Assembly: GCA_944378225.1 (NCBI GenBank)
Contig: CALWGE010000003.1
Location: forward strand, 5,455-69,454
DNA: 64,000 nt
Reading direction: 5' to 3'
Origin: an uncultured Merdimonas sp.
Lineage (GTDB): Bacteria; Bacillota; Clostridia; Lachnospirales; Lachnospiraceae
Position numbers and translations under genes: made by a program. Below the pieces are notes generated by a model. It worked only from the letters and a program-made list of their open reading frames with translations. It was not told the DNA's origin and did no database searches. Below are positions 6,386-32,504 of the stretch, one piece after another. Within the stretch, counting starts at the first letter, position 1; the number at the start of each line of letters is the position of its first letter.

Positions 6386-6424
6386 TGTGCCGGACCGGAA
6401 ATGGACAGGGAAGGAGAAAAGGTG

Positions 6425-11042: not shown

Positions 11043-11081
11043 GCGACTGTCTGAGGTAAAAAACAGAGAAAGGCGGAAAGA

Positions 11082-11807: not shown

Positions 11808-11833
11808 AACATATTGAAGAGTGGCATTATGAA

Positions 11834-11862
11834 TTGACACTAAATAAAAATATAGGTAAAAT
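11834..11862 (+). promoter_or_regulatory. Sigma-A-type promoter (TTGACA-N17-TAAAAT) in front of the SDR-transketolase-ACP-ligase-LuxE-LuxC cassette
   Basis: TTGACA at 11834-11839, a 17-nt spacer, then TAAAAT at 11857-11862. Lies in the 106-nt AT-rich gap ~50 nt upstream of the GAAGGAGG RBS of the SDR gene. Confidence 0.55.
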
Positions 11863-11913
11863 CATACTGAGTCTGAAAGAAGTGTATTTATAGCGTTATT
11901 GAAGGAGGAAAAT

Positions 11914-14433: not shown

Positions 14434-14453
14434 CATTTAGGAGGGAAAATAAC

Positions 14454-14693
14454 ATGACAAACAAGGAAAAATATGTGAACGCGTTTACAGAGACTTTTGA
14501 CATTACAGAGGAAGAGACAAAGGGCCTTCAGTATTCCGGAATCTCCGCATGGGATTCTGTAGGACATATGTCCCTCGTGGCGGCTCTGGAAGATGCTTTT
14601 GATATTATGATGGACACGGATGATATTATTGATTTCAGCTCTTTTGAAAAGGGAATGGAAATACTGAGTGAGAAATATGATGTGGAATTTTAA
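14454..14693 (+). CDS. Acyl/peptidyl carrier protein (DltC-sized, 79 aa)
   Basis: A 'WDSVGHMSLVAALEDAF' phosphopantetheine-site-like DS motif in a 79-aa acidic protein, placed immediately before an adenylating ligase. Confidence 0.7.
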   Translation: MTNKEKYVNAFTETFDITEEETKGLQYSGISAWDSVGHMSLVAALEDAFDIMMDTDDIIDFSSFEKGMEILSEKYDVEF

Positions 14694-16089: not shown

Positions 16090-16127
16090 TCAGTTATGTC
16101 TATGTATGGGAAATAAGGGAGCGAAAC

Positions 16128-17219
16128 ATGAATTTTGAGGAAATGCTTCAGAGAACCCCCTATTCTTTTTCGAAAGAGGAAAAAGAAGCGGTGTTAACGG
16201 AGAGACTATCAGAACTTACTGAAAAGCACAGGGTATCCTGCCCTCCGTATGGAAATATATTGAGAAGCGCCGGATATGAGCGGGGAAGAATCGGCAGTTA
16301 TAAGGAACTGCCGTTCCTTCCTGTCCGTCTGTTTAAAGAACTGGAGCTGAAGAGCGTTCCGGATGACCAGATTGTAAAAACCATGACATCTTCCGGGACA
16401 ACTGGACAGGCGGTTTCAAAAATCTATCTGGATCGCGTTACATCTGCAAATCAACAGAAGGTAATGGTGAAGATAGTCTCCGATTTTACCGGAAGCAGCA
16501 GGATGCCTATGATTATACTGGATTGTCCTTCTGTGGTGAAAAACCGTCTGATGTTTTCAGCCAGAGGAGCGGGAATTCTGGGATTCTCCATTTTCGGGGC
16601 AAAAAGAATATACGCTCTGGATGACGATATGAAGCTGAATGTGGAAGGACTGAAGGCATTTCTGGATAAATACCGGGGGCAGAGAATTTTCCTGTTCGGC
16701 TTTACCTTTATGATCTGGCAGCATTTTTACAAGGAACTTGTCCGGCTGAAACAGGAAGGCATCACATTTGACCTGTCTGACGGTGTCCTGATTCATGGAG
16801 GCGGCTGGAAAAAACTTATCAGTGAAGCGGTAAGCCCGGAAGAATTTAAACGCTGTCTTACAGATGTCTGCGGTCTGAGCCATGTACATGATTATTATGG
16901 TATGGTGGAGCAGACAGGATGTATTTATATGGAATGTGAGTGCGGTCATCTGCATGCCAGTATTTTTTCCGATGTGATCATGAGGCGTCCTCTGGACTTT
17001 TCGGAATGTGAAGTTGGAGAAAAAGGAATCATTCAGGTGGTTTCCACTTTGCCCGAATCCTATCCCGGACATTCGCTGCTTACAGAGGATGAAGGAATTG
17101 TGCTGGGAGAGGATGACTGTCCCTGCGGCAGAAAAGGGAAATATTTCAAGGTGATCGGCAGGCTGAAAAATGCGGAGATACGGGGGTGCAGCGATACCTA
17201 TGCAGAAAAGTTTAGATAG
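16128..17219 (+). CDS. LuxE-like acyl-protein synthetase
   Basis: 363 aa. 'MTSSGTTGQAVSKIYLD' nucleotide-binding motif and a Cys in 'IRGCSDTYAEKFR' 11 residues from the C-terminus, the position of the acylated Cys in LuxE. Paired with a LuxC-like gene. Confidence 0.6.
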   Translation: MNFEEMLQRTPYSFSKEEKEAVLTERLSELTEKHRVSCPPYGNILRSAGYERGRIGSYKELPFLPVRLFKELELKSVPDDQIVKTMTSSGTTGQAVSKIYLDRVTSANQQKVMVKIVSDFTGSSRMPMIILDCPSVVKNRLMFSARGAGILGFSIFGAKRIYALDDDMKLNVEGLKAFLDKYRGQRIFLFGFTFMIWQHFYKELVRLKQEGITFDLSDGVLIHGGGWKKLISEAVSPEEFKRCLTDVCGLSHVHDYYGMVEQTGCIYMECECGHLHASIFSDVIMRRPLDFSECEVGEKGIIQVVSTLPESYPGHSLLTEDEGIVLGEDDCPCGRKGKYFKVIGRLKNAEIRGCSDTYAEKFR

Positions 17220-18414
17220 AGAACAGTTACAGGGAATACAGTATCTGGTGGGCAGTGAAGAAATCCTCGCGCGGCTGCCGCAGGCAAAAGCCAGAGAACC
17301 TTTTGATGAAAAAATACAGGAATTTTTAAATGCTCTTTCCAGAGCGCTGCTTTCCATGCCAGAGGCAAAATTTTATCCGGATGTTGTGACATTCGCGTTC
17401 TGGATTCGCAAATCCTCCTTAAAAAAACTGGCAGAACGTTTTGCGTCCGGGAACAGTCTGATTCAGCTGGGAAGGGGAACAGCCTTTCACATTGCCCCTT
17501 CCAATGTGGCAGTAAATTATGCATACTCCTTTGCGGCAGGTTTTATGACTGGAAACGCAAATGTGGTGCGCGTTCCGTCAAAGGATTTCCCGCAGATCGC
17601 CGTGATCAACAGGGCGGTCAATGCGGTTCTTGAGCAGTATCCGGATCAGAAGCCTTATATTTGCTTTGTGCGCTATGGGAGAGAACAGCGGATTAACGAC
17701 GTCCTTTCTGCAATCGCAGATGTCAGAATTGTCTGGGGCGGAGATAGGACCATTGCGGAGTTGAGAAAATCACCGTTAGGTCCCAGGGCATCGGAAATTA
17801 CCTTTGCAGATCGGTATTCTCTGGCCGTGATTGACAGCGATATCTATATGGCTGCGGAGAATCCGGGACGAATTGCGGATGATTTCTATAACGATACGTA
17901 CCTGACCGATCAGAATGCATGTACCAGTCCCAGAATCGTTGTATGGTATGGATCGCGGATTAGCGAGGCGAAGGAGCGTTTCTGGTCTCTTCTCCTGGAA
18001 AAGGTGCAGAAAAAATACGAATTTCAGCCAATTCAGGGAGTAAACAAACTGACAAATGTCTATCTGGCTTCAGCAGGTCACGAAGGGCTTCACGCCATTT
18101 ACTGTGGAGACAATCGTCTGGTTCGGGTCTCTCTGGAGCGTCTTTTTGAAGACCTGATGGACTTTCGGGGAGATTCCGGCTATTTTTATGAATACGACTG
18201 TCAGGATCTTCTGCAACTGCAAAACATTTGCGACGATACCCGTTGTCAGACGGTCTCCTATATCGGAGACCCCAGTATGTTCCTGCCGCTTGTAAAATCC
18301 GGCATTGCCGGAATAGATCGGATTGTTCCCATAGGCAAAACCATGGATTTTGATATGATCTGGGATGGGTATAACCTGTATGAGAGACTGACCAGGACGA
18401 TAAGCCTTATATAA
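17170..18414 (+). CDS. LuxC-like acyl-CoA/acyl-protein reductase (aldehyde-forming)
   Basis: 414 aa (404 aa if the start is ATG 17200). ALDH-superfamily-like with the candidate catalytic Cys in 'YLTDQNACTSPRIVVW'. Overlaps the LuxE-like stop by 20-50 nt. Confidence 0.6.
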   Translation: MRRYGGAAIPMQKSLDREQLQGIQYLVGSEEILARLPQAKAREPFDEKIQEFLNALSRALLSMPEAKFYPDVVTFAFWIRKSSLKKLAERFASGNSLIQLGRGTAFHIAPSNVAVNYAYSFAAGFMTGNANVVRVPSKDFPQIAVINRAVNAVLEQYPDQKPYICFVRYGREQRINDVLSAIADVRIVWGGDRTIAELRKSPLGPRASEITFADRYSLAVIDSDIYMAAENPGRIADDFYNDTYLTDQNACTSPRIVVWYGSRISEAKERFWSLLLEKVQKKYEFQPIQGVNKLTNVYLASAGHEGLHAIYCGDNRLVRVSLERLFEDLMDFRGDSGYFYEYDCQDLLQLQNICDDTRCQTVSYIGDPSMFLPLVKSGIAGIDRIVPIGKTMDFDMIWDGYNLYERLTRTISLI

Positions 18415-19140: not shown

Positions 19141-19368
19141 AACGGCGGCAGAGTCCTGTAGCCACATAGGGCAATGTAGATTTCAGATATCTTGTTTTGC
19201 CGGTGGGCTATGGCTCAAATTATATGGTAGATATTCAAATCGGTGAAACAGCAGGTTATGCAGTGATAAACTAGGGAGAGGAATATACAGAAAATCTCAC
19301 AGATGGCGGATCTAGAGTTCTTCTGGAAGATGAGTGGTTTGTGGTTTTACAGAATGAGAGGCGGAGTA

Positions 19369-20550
19369 ATGGTGAAGAATGAAAAGAAAAATCTGGTTAT
19401 AACAGTTTTTTTTGCCGTATTTCTGTTTGTGATTACCTATCAGGTTATCATGGGAGCGATTAGAAATCCATACAGCGATTATCTGGGGCATGCGGAAAAC
19501 GCGGAGTTACTTCTGAATTCCGGACTTGGGGCAGTGCTACATGAAATAGGATATCCTTTATGGGCCTTACTTACTGCGGGGATCATGAAAATATCCAGAG
19601 CACCGGCTTATGAAGCTTCCGCGATTGCGGGCGGAATTCTGAATGTTCTGACCTATGCGCTGATCTACATGTATCTGATAAAAGACCATAAGGAAGAAAA
19701 ATTTTGGATTGCTGCGTTAAGCTGGCTTCTGCTTTTGGCAGGGCCGTTTTATATTCCCTGGTATAATTCAGAGATATATGCGGGGCAGGTGACGCCAAAT
19801 ATCTGGCACAATCCCACGACTATCTGTGTCCGGCCCTTTGCTTTCGTGGCTTTTCTGACGATTCTGAAACTTTTGGAAGAATATGAGGAAGAGCAGAAAA
19901 AACTTACTGTCAGGGACTGGCTTCTGCTGGCTCTTGCCCTTGTATTTTGCAATCTGGCAAAGCCCAGTTTTGTACAGATAGCTGTTCCCGGGCTGGCGGT
20001 TTATTTAATTGTTTTGCTGATTCGCACCAGAGGAAAAGCTTTTAGCTTCTGTTTTCAGACTGCGTCAGCTTTTGTGCCCTGTGTCCTCGTGATGTTATGG
20101 CAGTTGCTGGTTTCTTTTGGAACATCCAGTTCTGCGGATGGGGGAATTGAAATAGCCTGGTTTGATGTGATGGGCGCGTCATCGCCAAGTATTCCGTTTT
20201 CCATGCTGCTGAGTTATCTTTTCCCTGTTTATGTTCTCCTGACTAATATCAGAATTGTCAGGGAGCGAGACATTCAGGTGACGTTTTTTATGTGGCTTGG
20301 CGGATTCCTGGAAGCAGCCATGCTGGCGGAGACAGGCTATCGGCGTTACCATGGAAACTTTGGATGGGGATATGTGCTGGCAACCTTTCTGGTCTATGTG
20401 GTGACTTTCCGGTATTTCCTGAAGCGCAATCAGGAATACGATTATGAAAATGTAAAAGATAGAATTCTTGTTATGGGGGGCTGGGTGATTTTTTTACTGC
20501 AGTTTGCTATAGGAATTTATTATATAAGCACGTTTTTTATTCCTGTGTAA
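19369..20550 (+). CDS. Polytopic membrane protein, ArnT/GT-C-like candidate acceptor transferase
   Basis: The ORF track starts at 19303, but ATG 19369 follows GAGAGGCGGAG. About 393 aa, very hydrophobic, with a first-loop motif 'NPYSDYLGHAENAE'. Sits directly upstream of the ArnC-like, ArnE/F-like and GtrA genes. Confidence 0.55.
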   Translation: MVKNEKKNLVITVFFAVFLFVITYQVIMGAIRNPYSDYLGHAENAELLLNSGLGAVLHEIGYPLWALLTAGIMKISRAPAYEASAIAGGILNVLTYALIYMYLIKDHKEEKFWIAALSWLLLLAGPFYIPWYNSEIYAGQVTPNIWHNPTTICVRPFAFVAFLTILKLLEEYEEEQKKLTVRDWLLLALALVFCNLAKPSFVQIAVPGLAVYLIVLLIRTRGKAFSFCFQTASAFVPCVLVMLWQLLVSFGTSSSADGGIEIAWFDVMGASSPSIPFSMLLSYLFPVYVLLTNIRIVRERDIQVTFFMWLGGFLEAAMLAETGYRRYHGNFGWGYVLATFLVYVVTFRYFLKRNQEYDYENVKDRILVMGGWVIFLLQFAIGIYYISTFFIPV

Positions 20551-20574
20551 CATTCTGGTAAAGGAGAGAAGAAA

Positions 20575-21516
20575 ATGGACATATCGTTTGTGATACCATG
20601 TTATGGTTCGGAACATACCATAGAGAAGGTTGTGACTGAACTGAGGAATACTATGGCCGGAAGGCCTGAATACAGCTATGAAATTATTCTGGTCAATGAT
20701 AATTCTCCGGACCAGGTCTGGGGCGTGATTCAGAAGCTGGCGAAGACGTATGATAATATAAAAGGAATCTCACTTGCCCGTAATTTTGGTCAGCATGCGG
20801 CTCTGATGGCCGGTTACAGGAACTGTAAGGGTGAGATTGTGGTTTCCCTCGATGATGACGGACAGACTCCGGCGGACGAGGCATTCCTTCTGATTGATAA
20901 AATTAAGGAAGGGTATGATGTGGTTTACGGATATTATCCGGAAATCAGGCAGTCACATTTCCGGATATTCGGCAGCTGGGTAAATGAGAAAATGATAGAA
21001 ATACTTCTGGGAAAACCGAAAAAGCTGAAGTGTACCAGCTATTATGCGGCCAGAAGATTTATTATTGAGGAGATGCTGCGGTATAAGAATTCCTATCCTT
21101 ATGTAGGCGGACTGGTACTGCGCAGTACAAAAAATATTGGAAATGTTCCTGTACACCATCGTGCAAGAATGGAGGGAAATTCCGGATATTCCATGGGGAA
21201 ACTGCTGGCGTTGTGGTTTAACGGATTTACAGCCTTTTCTGTGAAACCGCTTCGTCTGGCTACTGTGGTAGGCTTTTTGTGCGCTGTTGCAGGTTTTATT
21301 TATGGTCTGATTATGGTTGTGCGCAAACTGATGGGATTTACTACGGTTCTGGGTTATAGCTCTCTGATTACAGTGATTCTGTTTATTGGTGGTATTATCA
21401 TGGTTTTGCTTGGAATTATAGGAGAGTATATCGGACGGATTTATATCAGTCTGAATAACGCTCCTCAGTATGTGATTCGGGAAACGATAGGAGGCAGTGA
21501 TGAGAAAACTGACTAA
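20575..21516 (+). CDS. Polyprenyl-phosphate glycosyltransferase (GT2, ArnC/GtrB-like)
   Basis: 313 aa. Motifs 'ISFVIPCYGSEHTI', 'ILVNDNSPD', 'RNFGQHAALMAG' and 'VSLDDDGQTP', plus two C-terminal TM helices ending 'GIIGEYIGRIYISLNNAPQYVIRE'. Confidence 0.8.
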   Translation: MDISFVIPCYGSEHTIEKVVTELRNTMAGRPEYSYEIILVNDNSPDQVWGVIQKLAKTYDNIKGISLARNFGQHAALMAGYRNCKGEIVVSLDDDGQTPADEAFLLIDKIKEGYDVVYGYYPEIRQSHFRIFGSWVNEKMIEILLGKPKKLKCTSYYAARRFIIEEMLRYKNSYPYVGGLVLRSTKNIGNVPVHHRARMEGNSGYSMGKLLALWFNGFTAFSVKPLRLATVVGFLCAVAGFIYGLIMVVRKLMGFTTVLGYSSLITVILFIGGIIMVLLGIIGEYIGRIYISLNNAPQYVIRETIGGSDEKTD

Positions 21517-21859
21517 ATCGGAAAAGAAGACATTTTTGGGATTGCAGCTCCTGCTGTTGTTTTATTCACTGGGCGGTATCTGTTCCAAAATGGCGGCCGG
21601 GCAGCCGTTCCTGTCTCCAAAATATATTTTATATTATGGAATGGTGCTTTTTATCCTTGCTGTTTACGCAATCGGGTGGCAGCAGGTAATTAAGAGGCTG
21701 CCGCTGATTACCGCATATGCGTCCAAGGCAGTTACCGTCATCTGGGGAGTTGTCTGGGGAATGCTTGTTTTTAAAGAAAAAATTACCGTGACTAATGTGG
21801 CAGGCGCCGTTGTAATTATTGCGGGAATTCTTTTGGTTGTGTCGGAAGAGGAGAAATAA
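21500..21859 (+). CDS. Small 4-TM DMT/SMR-like protein (ArnE/ArnF-like flippase subunit candidate)
   Basis: About 119 aa. ATG 21500 lies 5 nt after GGAGG. Hydrophobic, EamA-half-like ('AGAVVIIAGILLV'). Immediately followed by a second protein of the same kind. Confidence 0.65.
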   Translation: MRKLTKSEKKTFLGLQLLLLFYSLGGICSKMAAGQPFLSPKYILYYGMVLFILAVYAIGWQQVIKRLPLITAYASKAVTVIWGVVWGMLVFKEKITVTNVAGAVVIIAGILLVVSEEEK

Positions 21860-21860
21860 C

Positions 21861-22190
21861 ATGGGAATTGTAATCTTTCTGGGCTCTGTGCTGGTGGCTT
21901 CGATTTCCCAGATTATGCTGAAAAAGAGTGCTGATCGAAAATACGACAGATGGATAGATGAGTATCTGAATTTCAGAGTGATTTTTGCCTATGGACTGTT
22001 CTTTTTATCCAGTCTGATGACCGTTTACGCCTATAAATTTGTTCCGCTTTCTTTAGGACCCGTACTTGAGGCCAGTGGATATATTTTTGTTTCTGTTATG
22101 GGATATTTAATTCTGAAAGAGAAGATTGGAAGAAAAAAATTGCTGGGACTTATTGTGATCATAGCAGGAATTATACTTTTTAATGTGTAA
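21861..22190 (+). CDS. Small 4-TM DMT/SMR-like protein (second ArnE/ArnF-like subunit candidate)
   Basis: About 109 aa from ATG 21861, behind GGAAGAGGAG (the ORF track starts at TTG 21819). Contains 'LGLIVIIAGIILFNV'. Confidence 0.65.
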   Translation: MGIVIFLGSVLVASISQIMLKKSADRKYDRWIDEYLNFRVIFAYGLFFLSSLMTVYAYKFVPLSLGPVLEASGYIFVSVMGYLILKEKIGRKKLLGLIVIIAGIILFNV

Positions 22191-22234
22191 AGTCTGAGGT
22201 CGCAATATATTAAGAAAACGGAGATTGAGATATT

Positions 22235-22663
22235 ATGAAAAAACTATTCGCGCAGATCATCAAATTCGGAGCCGTAGGGTTCCTGTGTTTCTTTATCGAT
22301 TATGCCATCATGGTAGGCCTGACAGAATTTGCAGGAATTCCATCCTTAGTATCCAGCGGCTGTTCCTATACCATTTCTACGGTTGTAAACTATATTCTGA
22401 GTGTCACTGTCGTGTTTGACGCGGATAAAGAAGCAAACAAGATGGTACAGTTTGTTGTGTTTGTGGTTCTGAGTCTCATTGGACTCGGTATTAATCAGCT
22501 CTGCATGTGGGGCGGCACGGCATGGCTGGAGCAGCTGATGGAGCAGAGCAGGCTTCTGGCAGGCTATTCACGTTATGCTTACATGGTAGTAAAAATCTTT
22601 GCGACTGCAGTGGTAATGGTATATAATTTCATTACAAGAAAGATTTTTATCGAGAAACACTGA
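22235..22663 (+). CDS. GtrA-family membrane protein (lipid-linked sugar translocation)
   Basis: 142 aa. 'IKFGAVGFLCFFIDYAIMVGL' and a C-terminal 'VMVYNFITRKIFI' are typical of the GtrA/GtcA family. Confidence 0.8.
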   Translation: MKKLFAQIIKFGAVGFLCFFIDYAIMVGLTEFAGIPSLVSSGCSYTISTVVNYILSVTVVFDADKEANKMVQFVVFVVLSLIGLGINQLCMWGGTAWLEQLMEQSRLLAGYSRYAYMVVKIFATAVVMVYNFITRKIFIEKH

Positions 22664-22684: not shown

Positions 22685-24277
22685 ATGCGGAATCGAAGGA
22701 CAGCTCTTGGAATCGGACTGCTCCTGCTTATCTGCGGATGTCTGCGGTTTGTGCTTTTTCCACTGAAACTGCCTGATATGGGGACACAGACTTTGAGCGG
22801 GCAGGAGGCGGAGGCATTGATGGAAAGCCGGACTGTCACAGAGGATGAACTTCTTTCAGGACTTTTATTTGCCGGAGAGGAGCTTCCGTGGGACAGGCCT
22901 TCGGGTACCTTTTATCTGCCGGTGGACATGGATGAACCTTCCTGGGAAACAGGAACGTTCCAGGCGGCAGATTCCGGCGTGAAGATCTGGCTTCTGGATA
23001 ACCCTGCCGAGGATGATAAACAGGAGGCCGTCCGGGAGGGAAAAAGCTACAGGATTCTGGCAGTGAGCAAAAACAGTTATCGGGAATATCGTATCGTATT
23101 TACCGGACTGCCTGTTCTGACCCTGGACACGGATTCAGGAGCAGAAATCCGTTATGAAGAAATCCATGGAACCATGCGTTTTTATAAAGCAGATTCCAAG
23201 ACAGACTGGGTAACTGAAAGCGTTATGAGCGCGCATATCCGGGGAGGAAGCAGCCGCCTGAATCCGAAGAAATCCTATAAGATGACGCTGTATAAAGAGA
23301 ATCAGACAGGAAGCGGGAGCCTGCGCCAGAATCAGATGTCTTTTCTTGGAATGCGGGAGGACGACGAATGGCTTCTCTATGCCATGTACAGTGAGGATAC
23401 CAAGGTACGGGATAAGCTTTCACTGGATATCTGGAATGAGTCGGGAGCTTTACAGATTGACTCAGAAGGCTTTTACGGGTATCATATGGAATATATTGAG
23501 GTTTTCCAGAATGGCGAATACTATGGAATCTACGGACTGATGGAGCCTGTGGATTATAAGCAGCTGGAACTGACAAAGGAAAATGAGGCTCAGCCGGTGG
23601 AATATCTGTACAAGCAGAAAGATCCCGGAGTCTTTGAACTGAAAGGAAGCTGGACAGAGCAGACAGAAGAAGATTTTGATATGCTGAATACATATCTGGC
23701 GTATCTGGAGGCAGATGATGTGGAATTTGCAGAAATGATGCCCCAGCTTATTAATGTGGATAATGCGCTGGATGTCTGGCTGTATCTGCAGGCAGTTATC
23801 GGCATGGATAATATAGAGAGAAACATTTTTTATCCGACTGTCTGGGAAGAGGGAGAGTACCGGATACAGTTTATGCCCTGGGACATGGATTATACCTGGG
23901 GAAATGTACATGATTTTGACGCGGGCAACCGGACACGTTTTTCAGAAGAGATTCTGACCATGCGTATTGCCTGGAAGCTTGGAGATCGTCTGATCCTTCT
24001 GAATGTGGAAGGGGCCAGGGAAAAGATAAAGGCCCGGTGGAAGGAACTGCGTCAGACGGTGTATTCGGATGAGTGGCTGACGGAACATATAGATGCGTAT
24101 GCGCACCAGGTGGTGGATTCAGGAGCCTTTGAGAGGGATGGGGTTCGCTGGGTTAACAGCGGACATAACGGTGATTATGAGAGTCTGAAGAAACTGGTCT
24201 GTGAGAGAATGGCGTTTCTGGATGAACAGTTTGAGAATCCACTGGCCTATCTGGATTTGAAGGAGTATGTAGAGTGA
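22685..24277 (+). CDS. CotH-like (atypical kinase fold) protein with N-terminal membrane anchor, copy 1
   Basis: 530 aa. Anchor 'ALGIGLLLLICGCLRFVLF'. CotH-like blocks 'IRGGSSRLNPKKSYKM', 'DDEWLLYAMYSEDTKVRDKLSLDIWNE', 'YIEVFQNGEYYGIYGLMEPVDYKQL' and 'MPWDMDYTWG'. Confidence 0.75.
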   Translation: MRNRRTALGIGLLLLICGCLRFVLFPLKLPDMGTQTLSGQEAEALMESRTVTEDELLSGLLFAGEELPWDRPSGTFYLPVDMDEPSWETGTFQAADSGVKIWLLDNPAEDDKQEAVREGKSYRILAVSKNSYREYRIVFTGLPVLTLDTDSGAEIRYEEIHGTMRFYKADSKTDWVTESVMSAHIRGGSSRLNPKKSYKMTLYKENQTGSGSLRQNQMSFLGMREDDEWLLYAMYSEDTKVRDKLSLDIWNESGALQIDSEGFYGYHMEYIEVFQNGEYYGIYGLMEPVDYKQLELTKENEAQPVEYLYKQKDPGVFELKGSWTEQTEEDFDMLNTYLAYLEADDVEFAEMMPQLINVDNALDVWLYLQAVIGMDNIERNIFYPTVWEEGEYRIQFMPWDMDYTWGNVHDFDAGNRTRFSEEILTMRIAWKLGDRLILLNVEGAREKIKARWKELRQTVYSDEWLTEHIDAYAHQVVDSGAFERDGVRWVNSGHNGDYESLKKLVCERMAFLDEQFENPLAYLDLKEYVE

Positions 24278-25917
24278 AGAGACGGACGGCTCTTTTTCTG
24301 AATTTAATTCTGGCAGCATGCTGCCTGACATTTCTGTTTTTGTGGCCTTTGATTTGCGGGCCGATTGGCTATCGTGCAGGCACAGAGGACGAGATTAAAG
24401 AGCTTCTTGCCACACATACGGAAGCAGAAGAACCCTTTTTTACCGGCCTGGCTTTTTCAGGCGAGCAGCTTCCTTATGACATTGAGACAGCGACCTTTTA
24501 TCTTCCCCTGGATATGGACACAGATAAGTGGGAGACAGGGGAGCTGACAAGTACAGCTTCTGATGTGAGTTTGCTGTTTGAAGAGGAGTTTACCGCTTTT
24601 GAAAAACAGGAGGCTATCAAAAACGGCACACGATTTCTGTTTTATGCTGTGCGGGGACAGGAATATCAGAAATGCTGGCTGACAGCCACAGGTCTTCCGG
24701 TGATTTCGATTGAAACAGAGGCTTCGGCTGATATGGAGGTGTTTGGCGGAAGCGCGTATTTCTGGGATAGTCAGACAAAAAAAGACTGGACTTCTTCCAG
24801 CATTCTGGAAGCCAATATCCGGGGAAATACCAGCCGTACCTATGAGAAAAAAGGATATAAGCTGAATCTGAAAAAGCAGAACAAAAAAGGAGAGATAGTA
24901 GAGGATAAGAAGTCTCTTTTTGGACTCAGAAATGATGATGAATGGTTTCTGAATGCCATGTACAGTGATTCTTCCAAAATCCGGGATAAACTGAGCGCAG
25001 ATCTGTGGTCTCAGATTGGAGCTGTACAGGAGGAATTTCCGGAAGCTTATTTTGGTACCCGGATGACATATGTAGAAGTATTTTTCAACCATGAATACTG
25101 GGGATTGTATGTCCTGATGGAGCCGGTAGATTCCAAACAGCTTGACCGGACGCAGGAGGGAGCAGGAGCCGAGGAGGAATACTCCTATAAGTCTGTAACT
25201 CCTCAGAGCGAGGCGACGGAAGAACTTCTGGATCAGGAAACTTATGGTGAAACTCTTTCAGGATTTGAACTGAAGGGGACTTATTCTGTAACAGACAGGA
25301 GTTCCTGGGAGCCGTTGCTGTCTTATCTGGAACTGAGAGATCTGACCAGTGATCAGGAATTTGCTGAAAAAGCACCTGAGCTTGTGGATCAGGAGGGGGC
25401 TCTGGATATCTGGATCTATCTCCAGGCGGTTTTGGGTATCGACAATCGCGGAAAAAACATGTATTATGTGGCTAAGAACCGAGGAAATTTCCGGAAAATT
25501 TATTTTGCGCCCTGGGACATGGATATTACATGGGGCGATGCTCTGAGTGAGGGTACAGACGGAAAGATTTGGGATATAAGTCTCTATACGCCGCTTTATT
25601 CTGAGCGAATCAACTGGAGCTTTGGTGATCGCCTGCTTGAACTTGATGTGAGCAATTCCCGGGCTTATGTAAGTGAAAGATGGAAAGAACTTCGCAGCGG
25701 AGTTCTTTCAGATGAAACTCTCACAGATACAATAGACAGTCTGCTTCATCAGGTGCGTGATTCAGGTGCGCTGACCCGGGATGGACAGCGCTGGCCCGAC
25801 AGTAATTCCGGGCAGGATTACGAATTGTTTAAACGTATGGCGCTTTACCGGATGGGAATTCTGGATTATTATTTTGACGGAAATCTGGAAGAATACCTGG
25901 GACTGGGGTATGAGTAG
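24274..25917 (+). CDS. CotH-like protein with N-terminal membrane anchor, copy 2
   Basis: 547 aa. The GTG start overlaps the upstream stop. Anchor 'ALFLNLILAACCLTFLFLWPLI'. Blocks 'IRGNTSRTYEKKGYKL', 'DDEWFLNAMYSDSSKIRDKLSADLW', 'YVEVFFNHEYWGLYVLMEPVDSKQL' and 'APWDMDITWG'. Confidence 0.75.
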   Translation: MKRRTALFLNLILAACCLTFLFLWPLICGPIGYRAGTEDEIKELLATHTEAEEPFFTGLAFSGEQLPYDIETATFYLPLDMDTDKWETGELTSTASDVSLLFEEEFTAFEKQEAIKNGTRFLFYAVRGQEYQKCWLTATGLPVISIETEASADMEVFGGSAYFWDSQTKKDWTSSSILEANIRGNTSRTYEKKGYKLNLKKQNKKGEIVEDKKSLFGLRNDDEWFLNAMYSDSSKIRDKLSADLWSQIGAVQEEFPEAYFGTRMTYVEVFFNHEYWGLYVLMEPVDSKQLDRTQEGAGAEEEYSYKSVTPQSEATEELLDQETYGETLSGFELKGTYSVTDRSSWEPLLSYLELRDLTSDQEFAEKAPELVDQEGALDIWIYLQAVLGIDNRGKNMYYVAKNRGNFRKIYFAPWDMDITWGDALSEGTDGKIWDISLYTPLYSERINWSFGDRLLELDVSNSRAYVSERWKELRSGVLSDETLTDTIDSLLHQVRDSGALTRDGQRWPDSNSGQDYELFKRMALYRMGILDYYFDGNLEEYLGLGYE

Positions 25918-25974
25918 AAAGAGCAGGAACAGGGGAAACCAGACAGGTTTCCTGCGCCGGAAGGGAGAGAGAGC

Positions 25975-26670
25975 GTGGAGTATCGGAACGAACTTAAATA
26001 TGTAGTGTCGGAAACACAGCTTGTACTTCTGGAGAATCGGATTCGGAATCTGATCCGGCCAGACAGACATGCAGGCTCAGACGGCACATATCGAATCCGC
26101 AGCCTGTATTTTGATGACTGCGAAAATACCTGTTATCAGGAAAATGAAATGGGAACAGATCCACGGGAGAAATTCCGCATTCGTATTTATAACAGCGATG
26201 CGGGGAGAATCAGTCTGGAACTGAAGAAGAAGCAGCACAGCATGACGCAGAAAATTTCCTGCTTTCTGACGGAGGAGCAATGCAGAGAACTGATGGCAGG
26301 TCGGCCTCTTCCGGTAGATCCGTCTTATCCGCCGGTACTGCAGAAACTGAATCTGCTGATGCGGACCAGACTGATGAAGCCGCGGGTGATAGTGGAATAT
26401 GACAGAACTCCTTTTGTGGAGAAGCTTGGAAATACAAGAGTGACTCTGGATCGGAATATCCGATCTTCAGACGCCGTGTTGTCATTTCTGGAAAAGGACA
26501 TTCCGGGGCGGCCGGTGATGCCTGTGGGGAAACAGATTCTGGAGGTCAAGTACGATGAATTTCTGCCGGATCATCTGTACCGGAACCTGCAGCTTTCCAG
26601 CATGAGACAGACAGCTTTTTCAAAATATTATCTTTGCAGAAGGTTTTCGCTTACCGGAATTCGAGCCTGA
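25975..26670 (+). CDS. VTC-domain (polyphosphate-polymerase / triphosphate-tunnel-like) protein
   Basis: 231 aa, GTG start behind GGAAGGGAGAGAGAG. Motifs 'EYRNELKYVV', 'YRIRSLYFDD', 'REKFRIRIYN', 'ISLELKKK', 'VEYDRTPF', 'RVTLDRNI' and 'ILEVKYDEFLP' give the alternating basic beta-strand pattern of the VTC/CYTH tunnel. Confidence 0.7.
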   Translation: MEYRNELKYVVSETQLVLLENRIRNLIRPDRHAGSDGTYRIRSLYFDDCENTCYQENEMGTDPREKFRIRIYNSDAGRISLELKKKQHSMTQKISCFLTEEQCRELMAGRPLPVDPSYPPVLQKLNLLMRTRLMKPRVIVEYDRTPFVEKLGNTRVTLDRNIRSSDAVLSFLEKDIPGRPVMPVGKQILEVKYDEFLPDHLYRNLQLSSMRQTAFSKYYLCRRFSLTGIRA

Positions 26671-26758
26671 ATCGGAAAGCCGGGAGCTGAAATGTGGAAT
26701 AACCACTGTAGAAAATACAGTGTATATTCATAGAGAGAAATGGGAGGAACAATGAATA

Positions 26759-27433
26759 ATGGGATTTCAGGATGTATTTAAAAATTCATTTCTTGAGGGT
26801 TTTACAGGTATGGACATATCAGCCGGACGAATTATGGCTACCTTTACGGTAACCTGCATTCTCGCCTGCTATATTTTCCTTATTTACCGACTGATGACAA
26901 GAAGAGCCTTCTATTCCAAGAGCTTTAATGTATCAATGGCAGCTATCGCTGTGATTACGGCAGCAATTATTCTGGCTATGCAGTCTAATCTGGTGATTTC
27001 TCTTGGTATGGTCGGTGCATTGTCTATTGTCCGTTTCCGTACGGCAATTAAGGATCCTATGGACCTGGCATTCCTGTTCTGGTCTATCAGTGTGGGTATC
27101 ATCTGCGGTGCAGGCCTTTATGAGGTAGCTCTTCTGACCTGTCTGGTTGTGACGGTTCTTGTACTTGTGCTGGAAAATATTCCTGCGTCCAGAGCTCCGA
27201 TGATGCTGGTGGTAAATCTTTCAGATGCGGATCAGGAGTCCCGGGTACTGGATATAGCAAAAAAGTACAGCCGCTTTTATAAAGTGCGTTCCCGCAATAT
27301 TTCCGGGGGAAGTATGGATATGATTGTAGAGGTACGGGTGAAGGAAGAAAGTGCGCTGATAAAAGAAGTCTGCGCCCTTCCTGTGGTACAGTCCGCATCC
27401 CTGATCGCTCATGACGGCGAAGTGACCTTCTAG
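26759..27433 (+). CDS. DUF4956-like membrane protein (partner of the VTC-domain protein)
   Basis: 224 aa. Four or five TM helices followed by a soluble C-terminal domain. Signature-like 'LSIVRFRTAIKDPMDLAFLFWSISVGIICGAGLY'. Confidence 0.65.
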   Translation: MGFQDVFKNSFLEGFTGMDISAGRIMATFTVTCILACYIFLIYRLMTRRAFYSKSFNVSMAAIAVITAAIILAMQSNLVISLGMVGALSIVRFRTAIKDPMDLAFLFWSISVGIICGAGLYEVALLTCLVVTVLVLVLENIPASRAPMMLVVNLSDADQESRVLDIAKKYSRFYKVRSRNISGGSMDMIVEVRVKEESALIKEVCALPVVQSASLIAHDGEVTF

Positions 27434-27442
27434 GAGGCTTTT

Positions 27443-28897
27443 ATGGGAAATCTGACCGGACTATGGGGACGCGGCTGGCGTTTCGTGAGGAAGTACGGAA
27501 TTCTGAGCCTTTATCGAAAGATGAAGGAAAGGCAGGAGCGGAACCGGGCGGAGAAAGGGTATGAATCCTGGCTTTTTCAGAAACTTCCGGGAGAGGAAGA
27601 GACGCAGAGCCAGAGAAAAAGAGAATTTCCATTTGCGCCTGTGATCAGCGTGCTTGTGCCTGTTTATGAGACGCCGGAAAATTTTCTGCGCCAGATGCTG
27701 GAGTCTGTGCTGAAGCAGAGTTATGAAAAACTGGAACTGTGCATCACGGATGGCAGCCCCTCGGATCGTGTGAGACGGGTTGTGGAAGAATATGCTCTGC
27801 AGGATTCAAGGATACGGTATCAGAAGCTTGAAAAAAATCTGGGCATTGCCGGAAATACAAATGCAGCTCTGGAGCAGGCAGCAGGAGCTTATGTGGGTCT
27901 TCTGGATCATGACGATCTGCTGCTTCCGGGAGCTCTGTATGAAATTGTACAGGCTTTGAATGAGGGAGAACCGGCTGATGCAGTCTATACGGATGAGGAT
28001 AAGCTTGATCCGGAAAATAACCGGCATTTTCAGCCGCACTTTAAACCTGATTTCAATCCGGAATATTTAAGAAGCAATAATTATATCTGCCACTTCTTTG
28101 TGGTGAAACGGGAGATAGCTCTCAGGACAGGCGGATTTCGTGAAGAGTTTGACGGGGCGCAGGATCATGATTTTATTTTCCGGTGTACAGAACAGTCGCG
28201 AAAAGTGATTCATATTCCGAAGGTTCTTTATTCCTGGCGATGTCATGCCGCATCTACGGCGTCCAATCCTGAGAGCAAACTTTATGCTTATGAGGCAGGA
28301 AGACGGGCAGTGGCAGCTCATCTGGACAGAACAGGACGTACCGGCAGAGTTCTGAATACGGAAAATTATGGATTTTTTCGGGCGCAGTATCCCGGGAGTT
28401 CCGAATTATTAATAAAATCTTTCGAAAATTTTGATGGACATGCAGATGTAAATGTTGTATATTATGATAAGGCATGTAATAATTCTGTAACAATTTCTGG
28501 GAAGAAGAATTATGTGCTTTTTACCTGTGTCCGCGACGCGAAAGTGAATGCAGGTTTCTTTTCTGAACTTATGGCCTGCTGTAACCGGCCGGAAACAGGA
28601 CTGGCCTGTGCGAGGGTTTACGGAAAGAACAGACGGCTTTGCGGAGATATTCGTATGGCCGGTGTACAGGATCCGTTTTCAGAAGGAATGAGAGGAAAAA
28701 AAGCAGGATACTCTGGTTATTTTCACAGAATTCTTCTGCAGCAGGAACTGGAAAGACCTACGGACTGTTTCATGATTCGCAGGGAGCTTCTGGGAGAAAA
28801 TAAAGAGGTGTCAGTTCCTGAGTTGTGGAAACAGCTGAAGAAGGAAGGATACTTCATCTATTACGAGCCCTGGGCGGTGATGTATGAGAGCAGATAG
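27443..28897 (+). CDS. Family-2 glycosyltransferase (paralog of the N-terminal half of ORF 20-1741)
   Basis: 484 aa. Motifs 'ISVLVPVYETPENFLRQMLESVLKQSY', 'LLDHDD', 'NYICHFFVV' and 'GAQDHDFIFR'. Confidence 0.8.
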   Translation: MGNLTGLWGRGWRFVRKYGILSLYRKMKERQERNRAEKGYESWLFQKLPGEEETQSQRKREFPFAPVISVLVPVYETPENFLRQMLESVLKQSYEKLELCITDGSPSDRVRRVVEEYALQDSRIRYQKLEKNLGIAGNTNAALEQAAGAYVGLLDHDDLLLPGALYEIVQALNEGEPADAVYTDEDKLDPENNRHFQPHFKPDFNPEYLRSNNYICHFFVVKREIALRTGGFREEFDGAQDHDFIFRCTEQSRKVIHIPKVLYSWRCHAASTASNPESKLYAYEAGRRAVAAHLDRTGRTGRVLNTENYGFFRAQYPGSSELLIKSFENFDGHADVNVVYYDKACNNSVTISGKKNYVLFTCVRDAKVNAGFFSELMACCNRPETGLACARVYGKNRRLCGDIRMAGVQDPFSEGMRGKKAGYSGYFHRILLQQELERPTDCFMIRRELLGENKEVSVPELWKQLKKEGYFIYYEPWAVMYESR

Positions 28898-29843
28898 CAG
28901 TGTATCTATCGTGATACCTAATTATAATGGGATAAAGTTCATCCAGAAATGCCTGGAAGCATTGCTCGCAGATGCGCCCCAGGCTGAAATTCTGGTAGTG
29001 GATAATGGTTCTGCAGATGGAAGCCGTCAGCTGGTGGAAGAGAAGTTCCCCGGGGTACGGCTTATCGCTCTTGATCAGAATTATGGTTTTCCCCGTGCAG
29101 TGAATGAGGGAATTCAGGCATCATCCCGTCCCTATGTGATTCTGCTGAATAATGATACACAGGTTCTCCCGGGATTTACAGATGCGCTTACGGATGCGCT
29201 GACAACGGACAGACATGCATTTTCAGCTCAGGCAAAGCTTCTTTGCCTTTCTGATCCGGAGAAAATTGATGATGCAGGAAATTTTTACTGCGCTCTGGGC
29301 TGGGCTTATGCGAGAGGAAAAGACAAGCCGGCGGCATACTATGAAGAACCGGGAGAAGTGTTTGCGTCCTGTGCAGGAGCAGCAATTTACCGGAAAGAGC
29401 TTTTTGAAATAACAGGCTTTTTTGATGAAGCGCATTTTGCTTATCTGGAAGATATTGATGTGGGATGGAAAGCCAGAATTGCAGGGTACAGGAATCTGTA
29501 CGTTCCGGCTGCAAAAGTTCTCCATGCAGGGAGCGGCACCAGCGGATCCCGGTATAATGAATTTAAGGTGCGTTTAAGTTCGCGAAATAATATTTATCTG
29601 ATTTGGAAAAATATGCCGATTTTGCAGATAATACTGAATTTTCCTTTTCTTCTGGCGGGATTTGGAGTGAAGACTCTTTTCTTTTCAAGAAAGGGAATGG
29701 GAGGAATCTATGTCAGAGGACTGGGGGAAGGTTTTCGTCTGTGCAGGAGAGGGCGGAAAGTGAAGTTCCGCTGGAAAAACCTCCCCGCTTATGGAAAAAT
29801 CCAGATGGAATTATGGTTCAATACAGGAAAGAGATTTGGGTGA
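28884..29843 (+). CDS. Family-2 glycosyltransferase
   Basis: 319 aa. Motifs 'VSIVIPNYNG', 'VVDNGSADGS', 'LLNNDT' and 'YLEDIDVGWKARIAGY'. Overlaps the upstream gene by 14 nt. Confidence 0.8.
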   Translation: MRADSSVSIVIPNYNGIKFIQKCLEALLADAPQAEILVVDNGSADGSRQLVEEKFPGVRLIALDQNYGFPRAVNEGIQASSRPYVILLNNDTQVLPGFTDALTDALTTDRHAFSAQAKLLCLSDPEKIDDAGNFYCALGWAYARGKDKPAAYYEEPGEVFASCAGAAIYRKELFEITGFFDEAHFAYLEDIDVGWKARIAGYRNLYVPAAKVLHAGSGTSGSRYNEFKVRLSSRNNIYLIWKNMPILQIILNFPFLLAGFGVKTLFFSRKGMGGIYVRGLGEGFRLCRRGRKVKFRWKNLPAYGKIQMELWFNTGKRFG

Positions 29844-29849
29844 GAAAGA

Positions 29850-31259
29850 TTGATTAAGGACAACCAGCGTCATTTTAACAGGCTGCATGTGGTGCTGGAC
29901 GCATTTGTTATCGCTGCGTCTTATATGCTGGCCTGGTGGGTGCGATTCCCTCTTCAGAATAATATATCGGGTATTGTATTCCGGCATTACATGAGCATGC
30001 TGCCCTTTTTGTTTGTGCTTTATATAGGACTGTACGCTTTGTTTGGTCTTTATACGACAAAGAGCGTGCGCCGTAAGAGGGTTGAAGCCGAGAAGATTGT
30101 ACAGGCCAATACGATTGGTCTGGTTCTGTTCATGGCCGCGCTGTTCTTCTCCCGGGAAAATACAGAGTTTACGACAAACTATTCCCGAATGATGCTGGCA
30201 TGGTTTTATGTTTTCAATATCGGTCTGGAATGCCTGTTTCGCAATTTTATCCGTCTGGCTCTCCGCCATATCCGGGAAAAGGGCTTCAATCAGAAACATA
30301 TGATTCTGGTAGGATACAGTCGGGCGGCGGAAGAATATATTGACCGTATCAAGGCTAATCCGGAATGGGGCTATGATATTATGGGAATCCTGGACGATAA
30401 TGTTCAGCCAGGCATGAAATATCGTGGCGTGGAGGTCTTTGGACGGACAGAAGGAATTGAAGAGACACTGGAGAATGCCAAACCGGATGAGATTGCCATT
30501 ACTCTGGGATTGAGTGAATACTCGAAACTGGAGCATATTGTGGCAGTATGTGAGAAATCCGGCGTGCATACAAAGTTTATTCCGGATTACAATAACATTA
30601 TACCGACACGTCCTTATACAGAGGATCTGATGGGACTGCCGGTCATTAACATCCGACACGTCCCGTTGACAAACACGTTTAACGCTTTTCTGAAGCGTTC
30701 CATGGATTTGGCTGGGAGTGTCTGTGCTATTATACTGTTTTCGCCCGTAATGCTTCTGACGGCCGTGGCTGTCAAAATGACTTCGCCAGGCCCGCTTATA
30801 TATACCCAGGAGCGTGTAGGACTTCATAACAAGACATTCCGGATGTATAAATTCCGCTCTATGGATGTCCAGTCTCCCAAAAAGGAGAGAGGCGCCTGGA
30901 CGGTACCGGACGATCCGAGAGTGACAAAAGTGGGAAAAATCATACGGAAGACGAGCATTGACGAGCTTCCGCAGCTGTTTAATATATTAAAAGGGGATAT
31001 GAGCCTGGTAGGCCCGCGGCCGGAGCGTCCGTTTTTTGTGGAAAAGTTCCGGGAAGAGATCCCGCGTTACATGATTAAACACCAGGTGCGTCCGGGTATG
31101 ACCGGCTGGGCACAAATCAATGGCTACAGAGGAAACACCTCAATTCGAAAGCGAATCGAGTATGATCTCTATTACATTGAAAACTGGACGCTGGGGTTTG
31201 ATATAAAAATCTTATTTCTGACAATTTTCAAGGGCTTTATTAACAAAAATGCCTATTAA
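29850..31259 (+). CDS. Priming polyprenyl-phosphate hexose-1-phosphate transferase (WbaP/WcaJ/EpsL-type bacterial sugar transferase)
   Basis: 469 aa, TTG start. N-terminal TM helices, a central NAD-like linker, and a C-terminal catalytic block: 'KRSMDLAGS', 'FRMYKFRSM', '[40 protein letters not shown]', '[11 protein letters not shown]' and 'DLYYIENW'. Confidence 0.88.
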
Positions 31260-31286
31260 ATGTTGGGAAACAGAAAGGGTTATATT

Positions 31287-32504
31287 ATGGCAACCAATAC
31301 GAAAGGCAGAAATGCAGGAAAAAGAAACTCGGGAAACGGAAGACATAAGGAACATAGAACGCACAGAGAGCGGGATGAGTATGGCGAGTATAAACTCAGC
31401 CGGAAAGAGCAGAAACGTCTTAAGAAGGCAAAACGCAGAAGAAAGCTGATTGCCATCCTGGCTGTGGAATTTGTATTGATTCTTTTTCTGGGTATGGGCG
31501 TGTTTGCTTTGAGCAAGCTGGGCAAACTTCAGGATCTTGGTGTAAACCCGGATGACATTGGTATGAATGAGGATATTGATGAGGATACTGCAGAGCTCCT
31601 GAGCGGATATACCAATATTGCTCTCTTTGGTCTTGGCTCGAGAACGCCGGGAAGCCTTGGAGCGGGCGAATTGAGCGATACGATTATTATCGCCAGTATC
31701 AACAATGAGACCAAGGAAGTAAGGATGATATCTGTCTACCGTGATACTTATCTGAACCGTGCAGACGATACTTATGGTAAATGTAATGCTGCCTATTCCA
31801 AAGGCGGTCCCAAACAGGCCATTGAGATGCTGAATACCAATCTTGATCTGAACATCAAGTATTATGTCAGCATAGACTTTACTGCACTGATAAAAACCGT
31901 CGACCTGCTTGGCGGTGTGGAGATAGATGTTAAACCGGAAGAAGTTGACGCAATCAACGGATATATGTACGAGACTACAGAGATTGCCGAGAAAGCAGAC
32001 GATGACTCTATCAATCCTTACAACAGCTTTATCGAAGAACCGGGACTTCAGACACTGTATGGCGTTCAGGCTACAGCTTACTGCCGGATTCGTAAGGTCG
32101 GAAATAATGACTATGAAAGAACCGAGCGTCAGCGCCGCGTCATTGAGCAGATTGTAGAGAAGTCCAGAACAGCGGGACTTGGCAAGATTAATGCAATGAT
32201 TGATGAGGTATTTCCGCTGGTGGCAACAAATATACCCAAGACGACTCTGATCGGTATGGCAGCCAGCATGATGTCTTATGAACTGGGCGAGACAAGCGGT
32301 TTCCCCACATACAGAGTGGATAATATGAAGATGGATGGCCAGGCTGTGGTTATCCCTGCAGATCTGGTGGCAAATGTAACCGAGCTTCATCGGTTCCTCT
32401 TTGATGAAGAGGATTATTATCCGTCACCGACCGTTCTGGATATCAATGAGAAAATCATTTCGGATACGGGTGTAAAAGCACAGGAAACAGCCGGTACAGA
32501 ATAA
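31287..32504 (+). CDS. LytR-CpsA-Psr (LCP) family glycopolymer-peptidoglycan ligase
   Basis: ATG 31287 sits behind GAAAGGG (the ORF track starts at 31260). Basic cytoplasmic tail, one TM helix, and an LCP core: 'NIALFGLGSR', 'SDTIIIASIN', 'ISVYRDTY' and 'RIRKVGNNDYERTERQRRVI'. Confidence 0.85.
   Translation: MATNTKGRNAGKRNSGNGRHKEHRTHRERDEYGEYKLSRKEQKRLKKAKRRRKLIAILAVEFVLILFLGMGVFALSKLGKLQDLGVNPDDIGMNEDIDEDTAELLSGYTNIALFGLGSRTPGSLGAGELSDTIIIASINNETKEVRMISVYRDTYLNRADDTYGKCNAAYSKGGPKQAIEMLNTNLDLNIKYYVSIDFTALIKTVDLLGGVEIDVKPEEVDAINGYMYETTEIAEKADDDSINPYNSFIEEPGLQTLYGVQATAYCRIRKVGNNDYERTERQRRVIEQIVEKSRTAGLGKINAMIDEVFPLVATNIPKTTLIGMAASMMSYELGETSGFPTYRVDNMKMDGQAVVIPADLVANVTELHRFLFDEEDYYPSPTVLDINEKIISDTGVKAQETAGTE

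Follow-up and report, generated by a model that had tools for sequence, protein, structure and literature searches.

A conserved gene pair for a putative VTC-type polyphosphate polymerase and a DUF4956 membrane protein in an envelope-polysaccharide locus of an uncultured Merdimonas species

A stretch of 64,000 nucleotides from an uncultured Merdimonas sp. (Lachnospiraceae; assembly GCA_944378225.1, contig CALWGE010000003.1, positions 5,455 to 69,454), referred to here as the window, carries two adjacent genes, the first for a VTC-domain protein, a putative polyphosphate (polyP) polymerase, and the second for a membrane protein of the DUF4956 family. We found that the two genes occur together, in the same order, at every locus examined in other bacteria, and that the VTC-domain protein keeps the catalytic residues of the yeast polymerase Vtc4. 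The pair lies in an envelope-polysaccharide locus, directly downstream of two genes for CotH-family kinases that are predicted to face outward. The reading that we favor, tentatively and with less than even confidence, is that of a Vtc4-type polyP polymerase coupled to the membrane and working for the cell envelope, for which the DUF4956 protein would be the dock, the gate and possibly the conduit.

Conservation of the VTC-DUF4956 gene pair

The Pfam matches of both proteins are far above chance. The 231-aa open reading frame (ORF) matched Pfam VTC (PF09359) with E=4.3e-37 and 128.4 bits (cut-off 23), residues 4-220 of the protein covering positions 2-229 of the 235 in the hidden Markov model (HMM). 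The 224-aa ORF matched Pfam DUF4956 (PF16316) with E=4.5e-14 and 53 bits (cut-off 30.6). An initial annotation, made from the nucleotide sequence alone, had read the two ORFs as a tunnel-type VTC domain and a DUF4956-like membrane protein and had proposed HMM searches as a check; both domain assignments were upheld by Pfam, the first by a full-length match. No NCBIfam model matched the VTC ORF or the two CotH ORFs. Identical gene calls for both members of the pair are present in public assemblies from several samples, and a purine-rich, Shine-Dalgarno-like stretch (GGAAGGGAGAGAGAG) lies ahead of the GTG start of the VTC ORF.

Conservation of the pair was followed in a genome scan that used one genome per species and gave 80 loci from Lachnospiraceae, Oscillospiraceae and other Clostridia (47-86% identity). 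A DUF4956 gene was found downstream of the VTC gene and on the same strand in all 80; in 79 of them it is the direct neighbor, within 400 nt. The pair was also present in nine of nine places on the contigs of six more distant VTC representatives (37-39% identity) and on two RefSeq plasmids, one from Pseudobutyrivibrio and one from Planococcus (order Bacillales), whose VTC protein is 31.5% identical. Both plasmids annotate the genes as "polyphosphate polymerase domain-containing protein" and "DUF4956 domain-containing protein". The earlier proposal that the two adjacent genes form a real unit is well supported by these counts. Chance adjacency within a polysaccharide locus has a negligible probability and is effectively refuted, because the order VTC-then-DUF4956 is conserved through many different flanking contexts, on the distant contigs and on the Bacillales plasmid as well as in the 80 loci of the scan.

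Both families are large, with more than 5,367 homologs for the VTC protein and at least 8,000 for the DUF4956 protein. The matches of the VTC ORF form 4,891 clusters at 50% identity. The best 150 of these matches are all stand-alone proteins of at most about 290 aa (most of 220-250 aa), and no fusion was seen among them.

Tunnel residues and likely activity of the VTC-domain protein

The VTC protein is net basic and predicted to be soluble. It has no hydrophobic segment (maximum KD19 hydropathy only 0.49), in agreement with the initial annotation, which had assigned it no transmembrane (TM) segment. An alignment of 51 bacterial family members (35-86% identity) revealed invariant residues in all parts of the protein: E6, K8, D30, Y39, S43, Y45, D47 and G60 in the N-terminal part; R68, R70, Y72, E82, K84 and K93 in the middle; and Y142, R144, R155, D159, E190, K192, P198, S216 and K217 in the C-terminal part. 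The motifs from which the tunnel domain had initially been recognized were located at residues 6-11 (ELKYVV), 39-48 (YRIRSLYFDD), 66-73 (KFRIRIYN), 81-86 (LELKKK), 155-162 (RVTLDRNI) and 189-194 (LEVKYD). They are the catalytic strands and hold, in this order, E6/K8, S43/Y45/D47, R68/R70, E82/K84, R155/D159 and E190/K192.

As a single sequence, the VTC ORF gave no match in the PDB. The profile of the 51-sequence alignment matched the catalytic domain of yeast Vtc4 (3g3q, E=1.5e-10), and also 5iiq, 8i6v, 7ytj and Vtc2 (3g3o). In the alignment of the profile with 3g3q, residues K8, R68, R70, K84, K93, Y142, R144, R155, E190, K192, S216 and K217 correspond to Vtc4 K200, R264, R266, K281, K294, Y359, R361, R373, E426, K428, S457 and K458, respectively; R4 corresponds to R196, a basic tunnel-exit position. 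The core of this mapping, but not the termini, was upheld by hhalign, which gave a probability of 96.5% for residues 38-164 against a Vtc4 fragment taken from the HMMER output.

It has been shown that K200, R264, R266, K281, Y359, R361, S457 and K458 of Vtc4 bind triphosphate and that E426 binds Mn2+ (10.1101/2023.01.27.525886). Mutation of the triphosphate-binding residues leads to less polyP, and K458 is the sole residue that differs in the inactive Vtc2 and Vtc3, where it is replaced by Ile or Leu (10.1101/2023.01.27.525886). All of these triphosphate and Mn2+ ligands have invariant counterparts in the 51 bacterial sequences, including K217 at the position of K458, and the VTC ORF therefore carries the "active" Vtc4 set. 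Basic residues also line the tunnel exit of Vtc4 (R196, K294, R373 and K428; 10.1101/2023.01.27.525886), where they guide the chain out; TTM hydrolases have an acidic patch in their place (PMC4641920). In the VTC ORF these positions are occupied by R4, K93, R155 and K192, and the mapped basic tunnel residues are kept; E6 (see below) is acidic like its counterpart in AtTTM3.

The same residues bear on the possibility, which we regard as unlikely, that the protein is a tunnel hydrolase or some other transferase partnering the DUF4956 protein in envelope phosphate handling. Candidate activities would be those of a tripolyphosphatase, of a nucleoside triphosphate triphosphatase, or of an enzyme with a triphosphorylated lipid or glycan intermediate as its substrate. 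Activities differ widely among TTM enzymes even where the tunnel centers are near-identical, and AtTTM3, which resembles Vtc4, is a tripolyphosphatase (PMC4641920). The invariant E6 of the bacterial proteins sits at the position of AtTTM3 Glu-4, a residue of the second metal site of TTM hydrolases that is absent from Vtc4 (PMC4641920); Vtc4 has Thr there. An inorganic pyrophosphatase gene directly downstream of the pair at one distant locus is also compatible with a non-polymerase function. However, just one mappable position of the hydrolase acidic patch is acidic in the VTC ORF, R4 and K192 being basic as in Vtc4. The K458 equivalent, critical for the polymerase and dispensable for the hydrolase activity of AtTTM3, is invariant, and the Pfam family of the protein is VTC, CYTH giving no match at E<=10.

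The DUF4956 membrane partner

Hydropathy analysis showed the DUF4956 protein to be hydrophobic across residues 22-146. An AlphaFold2 (AF2) model was built from a 65-sequence alignment (mean pLDDT 68.8). It contains five helices (22-46, 54-73, 77-93, 100-117 and 121-140), with pLDDT of 55-77 in the membrane part, followed by a C-terminal domain (148-217) of beta-alpha-beta-beta-alpha-beta order with pLDDT of 82-88. The four to five TM helices and soluble domain of about 80 aa that had been proposed initially agree with this model. The segment SIVRFRTAIKDPMDLAFLFW, which had been singled out as strongly conserved-looking, was located at residues 89-108. Its conservation was confirmed across homologs in the hairpin SLGMVGALSIVRFRTAIKDPMDL-FLFW, and the longer stretch SLGMVGALSIVRFRTAIKDPMDL-FLFW-IS-GIICGA is near-invariant in DUF4956 sequences that are only 50-60% identical overall. 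R92, R94, K98, P100 and D102 are invariant in alignments of 31 and of 65 sequences. By hydropathy, the basic loops (residues 47-53 and 94-99) are consistent with an N-out/C-in topology, and R92, R94, K98 and the C-terminal, ACT-like domain would therefore be cytoplasmic.

Similarity to the MgtC family was detected below threshold. Pfam MgtC matched the DUF4956 protein with E=3.7e-5 and 24.5 bits (cut-off 31.4), the NCBIfam MgtC/SapB model PRK09977 with E=2.4e-4 and 20.8 bits (cut-off 214), and some close homologs carry a precomputed PF02308 match. A Foldseek comparison of the model with the PDB gave matches for the C-terminal domain only, all weak (E>=1e-3) and to generic alpha/beta sandwiches, among them BMC-H shell proteins, the RelA ACT domain (3ibw) and the C-terminal domain of NikR; the membrane part, in which model confidence is moderate, had no Foldseek match. 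From these similarities the protein looks like a distant relative of MgtC/SapB/YhiD with an ACT-like tail. The authors of a recent study of Streptococcus intermedius likewise took DUF4956 for an MgtC-type protein (PMC12345266).

The initial annotation had described the two genes as a split VTC module in which DUF4956 takes the place of the yeast channel. This part of the proposal was not upheld. The DUF4956 protein has no DUF202/Vtc1-type match in Pfam at E<=10, no meaningful match in the PDB by sequence or profile, including the VTC chains of 7ytj and 8i6v, and no fold similarity to the channel in the Foldseek comparison. By these searches it does not appear to be homologous to the yeast channel; the term "split VTC" thus describes an analogy, and a translocase role is one that we infer. 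Of the "minimal polyP synthase/translocase" that had been suggested, the domains, the pairing and the catalytic residues stand, and the equation of DUF4956 with the yeast channel does not.

CotH kinases and the surrounding operon

The two CotH genes directly upstream of the VTC gene and the wall-glycopolymer operon around them, neither of which was mentioned in the initial annotation, are the main clues to the function of the pair. The coordinates of these genes are given in Table 1. CotH1 and CotH2 are tandem paralogs with 39% identity across their full length, and the stop of the first overlaps the start of the second by 4 nt. Hydropathy shows one hydrophobic segment per protein, N-terminal and preceded by basic residues (residues 5-30 after RNRR in CotH1, residues 4-33 after KRR in CotH2). 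It would be a membrane anchor in CotH1 and an anchor or signal sequence in CotH2, and on this basis the two kinases are predicted to face outward. The motifs D-N...N and PWDMD-TWG are retained in CotH1 and CotH2 and align to CotH of Bacillus cereus, the catalytic residues being mapped only loosely; CotH2 gave a weak match to the B. cereus structure (5jd9) that takes in the PWD-D-TWG motif.

Linkage to CotH is frequent in the genome scan. A CotH gene was found within four genes of VTC in 66 of the 80 loci (directly adjacent in 65) and three more have copies truncated at contig ends, giving about 69 loci with CotH near VTC when the truncated copies are included. Of the 82 neighboring CotH proteins, 77 were predicted to have an N-terminal anchor as their only hydrophobic segment. 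In about ten of the 80 loci, the VTC-DUF4956 pair lies without CotH between mfd and a Bmp/ABC transporter. It is therefore the pair, not the trio, that forms the invariant core, with CotH as a common but not constant addition.

Between 19.3 and 32.5 kb of the window every gene is on the forward strand; the gaps measure 9-88 nt, and no terminator in the region is convincing. The gap after the DUF4956 gene is 9 nt, and no convincing terminator was seen before the genes downstream of it. The gene order in this region is polytopic-GT2-EamA-EamA-GtrA-CotH-CotH-VTC-DUF4956-GT2-GT2-Bac_transf-LCP. A core order of GtrA-CotH(s)-VTC-DUF4956-GT2-GT2-Bac_transf-LCP is kept in 25 loci of the scan (L001-L025), and the genes upstream of GtrA are present in many, not all, of these. 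The set of genes from the polytopic protein to GtrA resembles a module for lipid-linked sugar flipping or extracytoplasmic glycan decoration. Farther upstream, positions 9915-18414 encode a DegT/EryC1 aminotransferase, an SDR protein, a transketolase split into separate genes for its N and C halves, an AMP-binding enzyme, a LuxE-like acyl-protein synthetase and a LuxC-like acyl-CoA reductase, an unusual sugar or acyl modification set for a wall-polymer operon. Additional GT2 genes and a gene for a DUF6020 protein also lie in this upstream part.

Table 1. Genes of the region from 19.3 to 32.5 kb of the window.
Feature	Position	Strand	Basis
415-aa polytopic protein (no Pfam match), GT2, two half-size EamA proteins, GtrA-like protein	19303-22663	+	Pfam, hydropathy
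CotH-family kinase 1, 530 aa	22685-24277	+	Pfam CotH, E=7.7e-39
CotH-family kinase 2, 547 aa	24274-25917	+	Pfam CotH, E=2.2e-42
VTC-domain protein, putative polyphosphate polymerase, 231 aa	25975-26670	+	GTG start; Pfam VTC
DUF4956 membrane protein, 224 aa	26759-27433	+	ATG start; Pfam DUF4956
Two GT2, Bac_transf polyprenyl-phosphate sugar transferase, LCP (LytR-CpsA-Psr) wall ligase	27443-32504	+	Pfam

Among the ORFs scanned across the window, no PPK1 or PPK2 gene was found, and no pel genes (PelG, PelF-type GT4 or other pel families) were found either. Three consecutive large ORFs of 581, 603 and 569 aa (4640-9918) and a 241-aa ORF (11082-11807), all lying among glycosyltransferases, had no Pfam match at E<=0.1. 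The remainder of the window consists of housekeeping genes. The only clear minus-strand gene, a FeoA-FeoB fusion (47892-50369), lies where the GC skew, strongly positive elsewhere (about 0.2), has its only dip (0.096) and where the GC content peaks (0.517). Interpretation of the locus as a defense system was dropped, as PADLOC gave no match.

Proposed function of the pair

In the reading that we favor, the VTC protein would most likely polymerize inorganic polyP from ATP with Mn2+ or Mg2+, acting at the inner face of the membrane while docked on the DUF4956 protein. The five-helix DUF4956 protein would turn its invariant basic hairpin (R92, R94, K98) toward the cytoplasm and would anchor and gate the polymerase; in the version that we prefer, it would also hand the nascent polyP chain to the outer face of the membrane. 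The pair would belong to one long operon for a wall-linked glycopolymer, following the two outward-facing CotH kinases, and these may use or attach the exported phosphate polymer, modifying the wall polymer or surface proteins. A precedent is provided by yeast VTC, in which polyP synthesis is coupled to membrane transit (10.1101/2023.01.27.525886; PMC4641920). The conserved basic residues at the predicted cytoplasmic face of DUF4956, together with its ACT-like domain, argue for this arrangement, as do the altered Pel level and aggregation of S. intermedius after deletion of the DUF4956 or CotH ortholog (PMC12345266).

Several points weigh against it. The mapping of E426, S457 and K458 depends on the motifs LEVK and FSK[YF], which lie in a stretch of the HMMER alignment that is insignificant alone. 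The single-sequence AF2 model of the VTC ORF reached a pLDDT of only 37, and the closed tunnel fold of eight beta-strands is taken from homology. The invariant E6 at the AtTTM3 Glu-4 position, described above, is a hydrolase-like feature, and an activity measurement for any bacterial VTC-domain member was not found in the literature searched. Deletion of SIR_1593, the VTC ortholog of S. intermedius, gave no clear aggregation phenotype (PMC12345266). The pair without adjacent CotH in about ten of the 80 loci is a further point. As judged by the searches described above, DUF4956 lacks detectable kinship to the VTC membrane channel, and MgtC is known for regulatory protein-protein interactions, not for transport (PMC12345266).

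In another explanation, possible but on the whole doubtful, polyP stays in the cytoplasm. DUF4956 would then be an MgtC-like anchor and sensor that does not conduct the polymer but switches the polymerase when a metabolite binds to its ACT-like domain, and the pair would be linked to CotH and polysaccharide genes through common regulation or for reasons of phosphate economy. The sub-threshold MgtC matches in Pfam and NCBIfam and the architecture of an MgtC-like membrane part with an ACT-like domain are consistent with such a role. MgtC works by protein-protein regulation and affects phosphate metabolism, and the authors of the S. intermedius study proposed that polyP may remain cytoplasmic (PMC12345266). 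The loci in which the pair lies among housekeeping genes, with no CotH adjacent, point in the same direction. A cytoplasmic role does not account, however, for the association of a soluble polymerase with a polytopic protein bearing an invariant membrane hairpin at every locus examined, nor for the presence of outward-facing CotH in about 85% of loci.

We also considered that the system could serve as an energy-supply line for phosphorylation outside the cell, which seems to us improbable. The VTC protein would make polyP, an oligomer of DUF4956 would thread it, and the outward-facing CotH kinases would use polyP and not ATP outside the cell, (poly)phosphorylating the wall glycopolymer or surface proteins with polyP as the donor. 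If true, bacteria would have a polyP synthase/exporter of the VTC type with a non-homologous channel, and the source of a phosphoryl donor for secreted CotH kinases outside the cell would be explained.

According to a 2025 review, polyP synthesis is of the PPK type in prokaryotes and of the VTC type in eukaryotes (PMC12526157). Stand-alone VTC-domain genes are abundant in bacteria and are paired with DUF4956 in every sampled locus. If the pair makes polyP as we favor, it would represent a second, unrecognized bacterial polyP route. If it also exports polyP, the product may feed the cell envelope, which would give a function to the secreted CotH proteins and to DUF4956. The practical gain from the window is modest.

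Variant loci

Two VTC-DUF4956 pairs, in tandem or close together, were observed at L028 (999-4028) and L034 (293-1641 and 5666-9384), and L034 has an additional DUF4956 gene upstream of CotH. A duplication like those at L028 and L034 is present in NELoc-2 of Clostridium perfringens, there around a resolvase gene. At L081 (94-2335; 37% identity), the gene directly after the pair encodes an inorganic pyrophosphatase, which fits phosphoanhydride chemistry. The locus on the Planococcus maritimus plasmid NZ_CP059541.1 (L094, 4989-10690) encodes, in order, VTC, DUF4956, CotH, a large hypothetical protein and a HEAT-repeat protein. The same five-gene order is found in NELoc-2, which suggests that the module has a second conserved form, one that may be mobile.

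Comparison with known systems

The window locus is an ordinary member of a widespread gene set that has already been annotated and described. The set of CotH, "poly-phosphate polymerase" and DUF4956 was described in 2019 as accessory to Gram-positive pel operons (10.1101/768473). In S. intermedius, the three proteins SIR_1594 (CotH), SIR_1593 (VTC) and SIR_1592 (DUF4956) have been modeled and their genes deleted (mBio 2025; PMC12345266). Deletion of SIR_1592 or SIR_1594 altered the Pel level and aggregation; polyP was not measured in that study (PMC12345266). Papers on Bacteroides and S. mutans transcriptomes that mention DUF4956 gave no functional clue. The initial annotation had called the module uncharacterized. 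This is correct for its biochemistry, as no biochemical characterization of VTC/DUF4956 was found in the searchable literature, but not for the genes themselves, which carry RefSeq names and belong to a trio already described with deletion mutants.

It has been stated that the trio does not occur outside Pel loci (PMC12345266). We found it in LCP-type or other exopolysaccharide loci without pel, in the window (22685-27433) as well as at L001-L025, L087 and L095, and the published statement does not hold for these loci. A genuine Pel context was seen only at one distant locus, L085. The occurrence of the trio outside Pel loci, within an LCP-type wall-polysaccharide operon, and the recognition of the VTC-DUF4956 pair, rather than the trio with CotH, as the invariant core are new here.

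The Pel accessory trio is made up of the same three families in the same order, CotH-VTC-DUF4956, which are contiguous in the window. Common to both are a CotH with predicted secretion, an ACT domain in the membrane protein and an envelope polysaccharide locus as host. They differ in the kind of host locus, which in the window is a GT2/Bac_transf/LCP wall-glycopolymer operon with no pelDEA(DA)FG contiguity, and in that the window has two tandem CotH paralogs and no DUF4832 hydrolase. A second known relative is NELoc-2 of C. perfringens, reported in 2010 with two pairs of VTC and membrane-protein genes beside CotH, the DUF4956 protein being mis-annotated as "tubulin/FtsZ" (PMC2879425). In NELoc-2 and on the Planococcus plasmid the pair is linked to CotH, as here; unlike in the window, CotH lies downstream of the pair, other accessory genes are present and, in NELoc-2, the pair is duplicated.

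DUF4956 shares with MgtC/SapB/YhiD proteins a hydrophobic N-terminal domain of about five helices and a small cytoplasmic ACT-like domain, but it is set apart by an invariant motif, RFRTAIKDP, and by its obligate VTC neighbor. We know of no partnership between MgtC and a tunnel enzyme. With PPK1 and PPK2 the VTC protein would share a product, polyP made from a nucleoside triphosphate, whereas the folds and families are unrelated. The closest enzymatic parallel is yeast Vtc4 (3g3q, 7ytj, 8i6v), a member of the same family that shares the triphosphate, Mn2+ and tunnel-exit residues, including the K458 equivalent, and that works with a membrane protein as the window protein, with its membrane partner gene, may also do. 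Unlike its yeast counterpart, the window protein is a stand-alone polypeptide of 231 aa that has no SPX domain and no fused DUF202/Vtc1-type helices, and it carries an extra invariant Glu (E6) in strand 1; its partner is encoded by a separate gene and belongs to another family than Vtc1.

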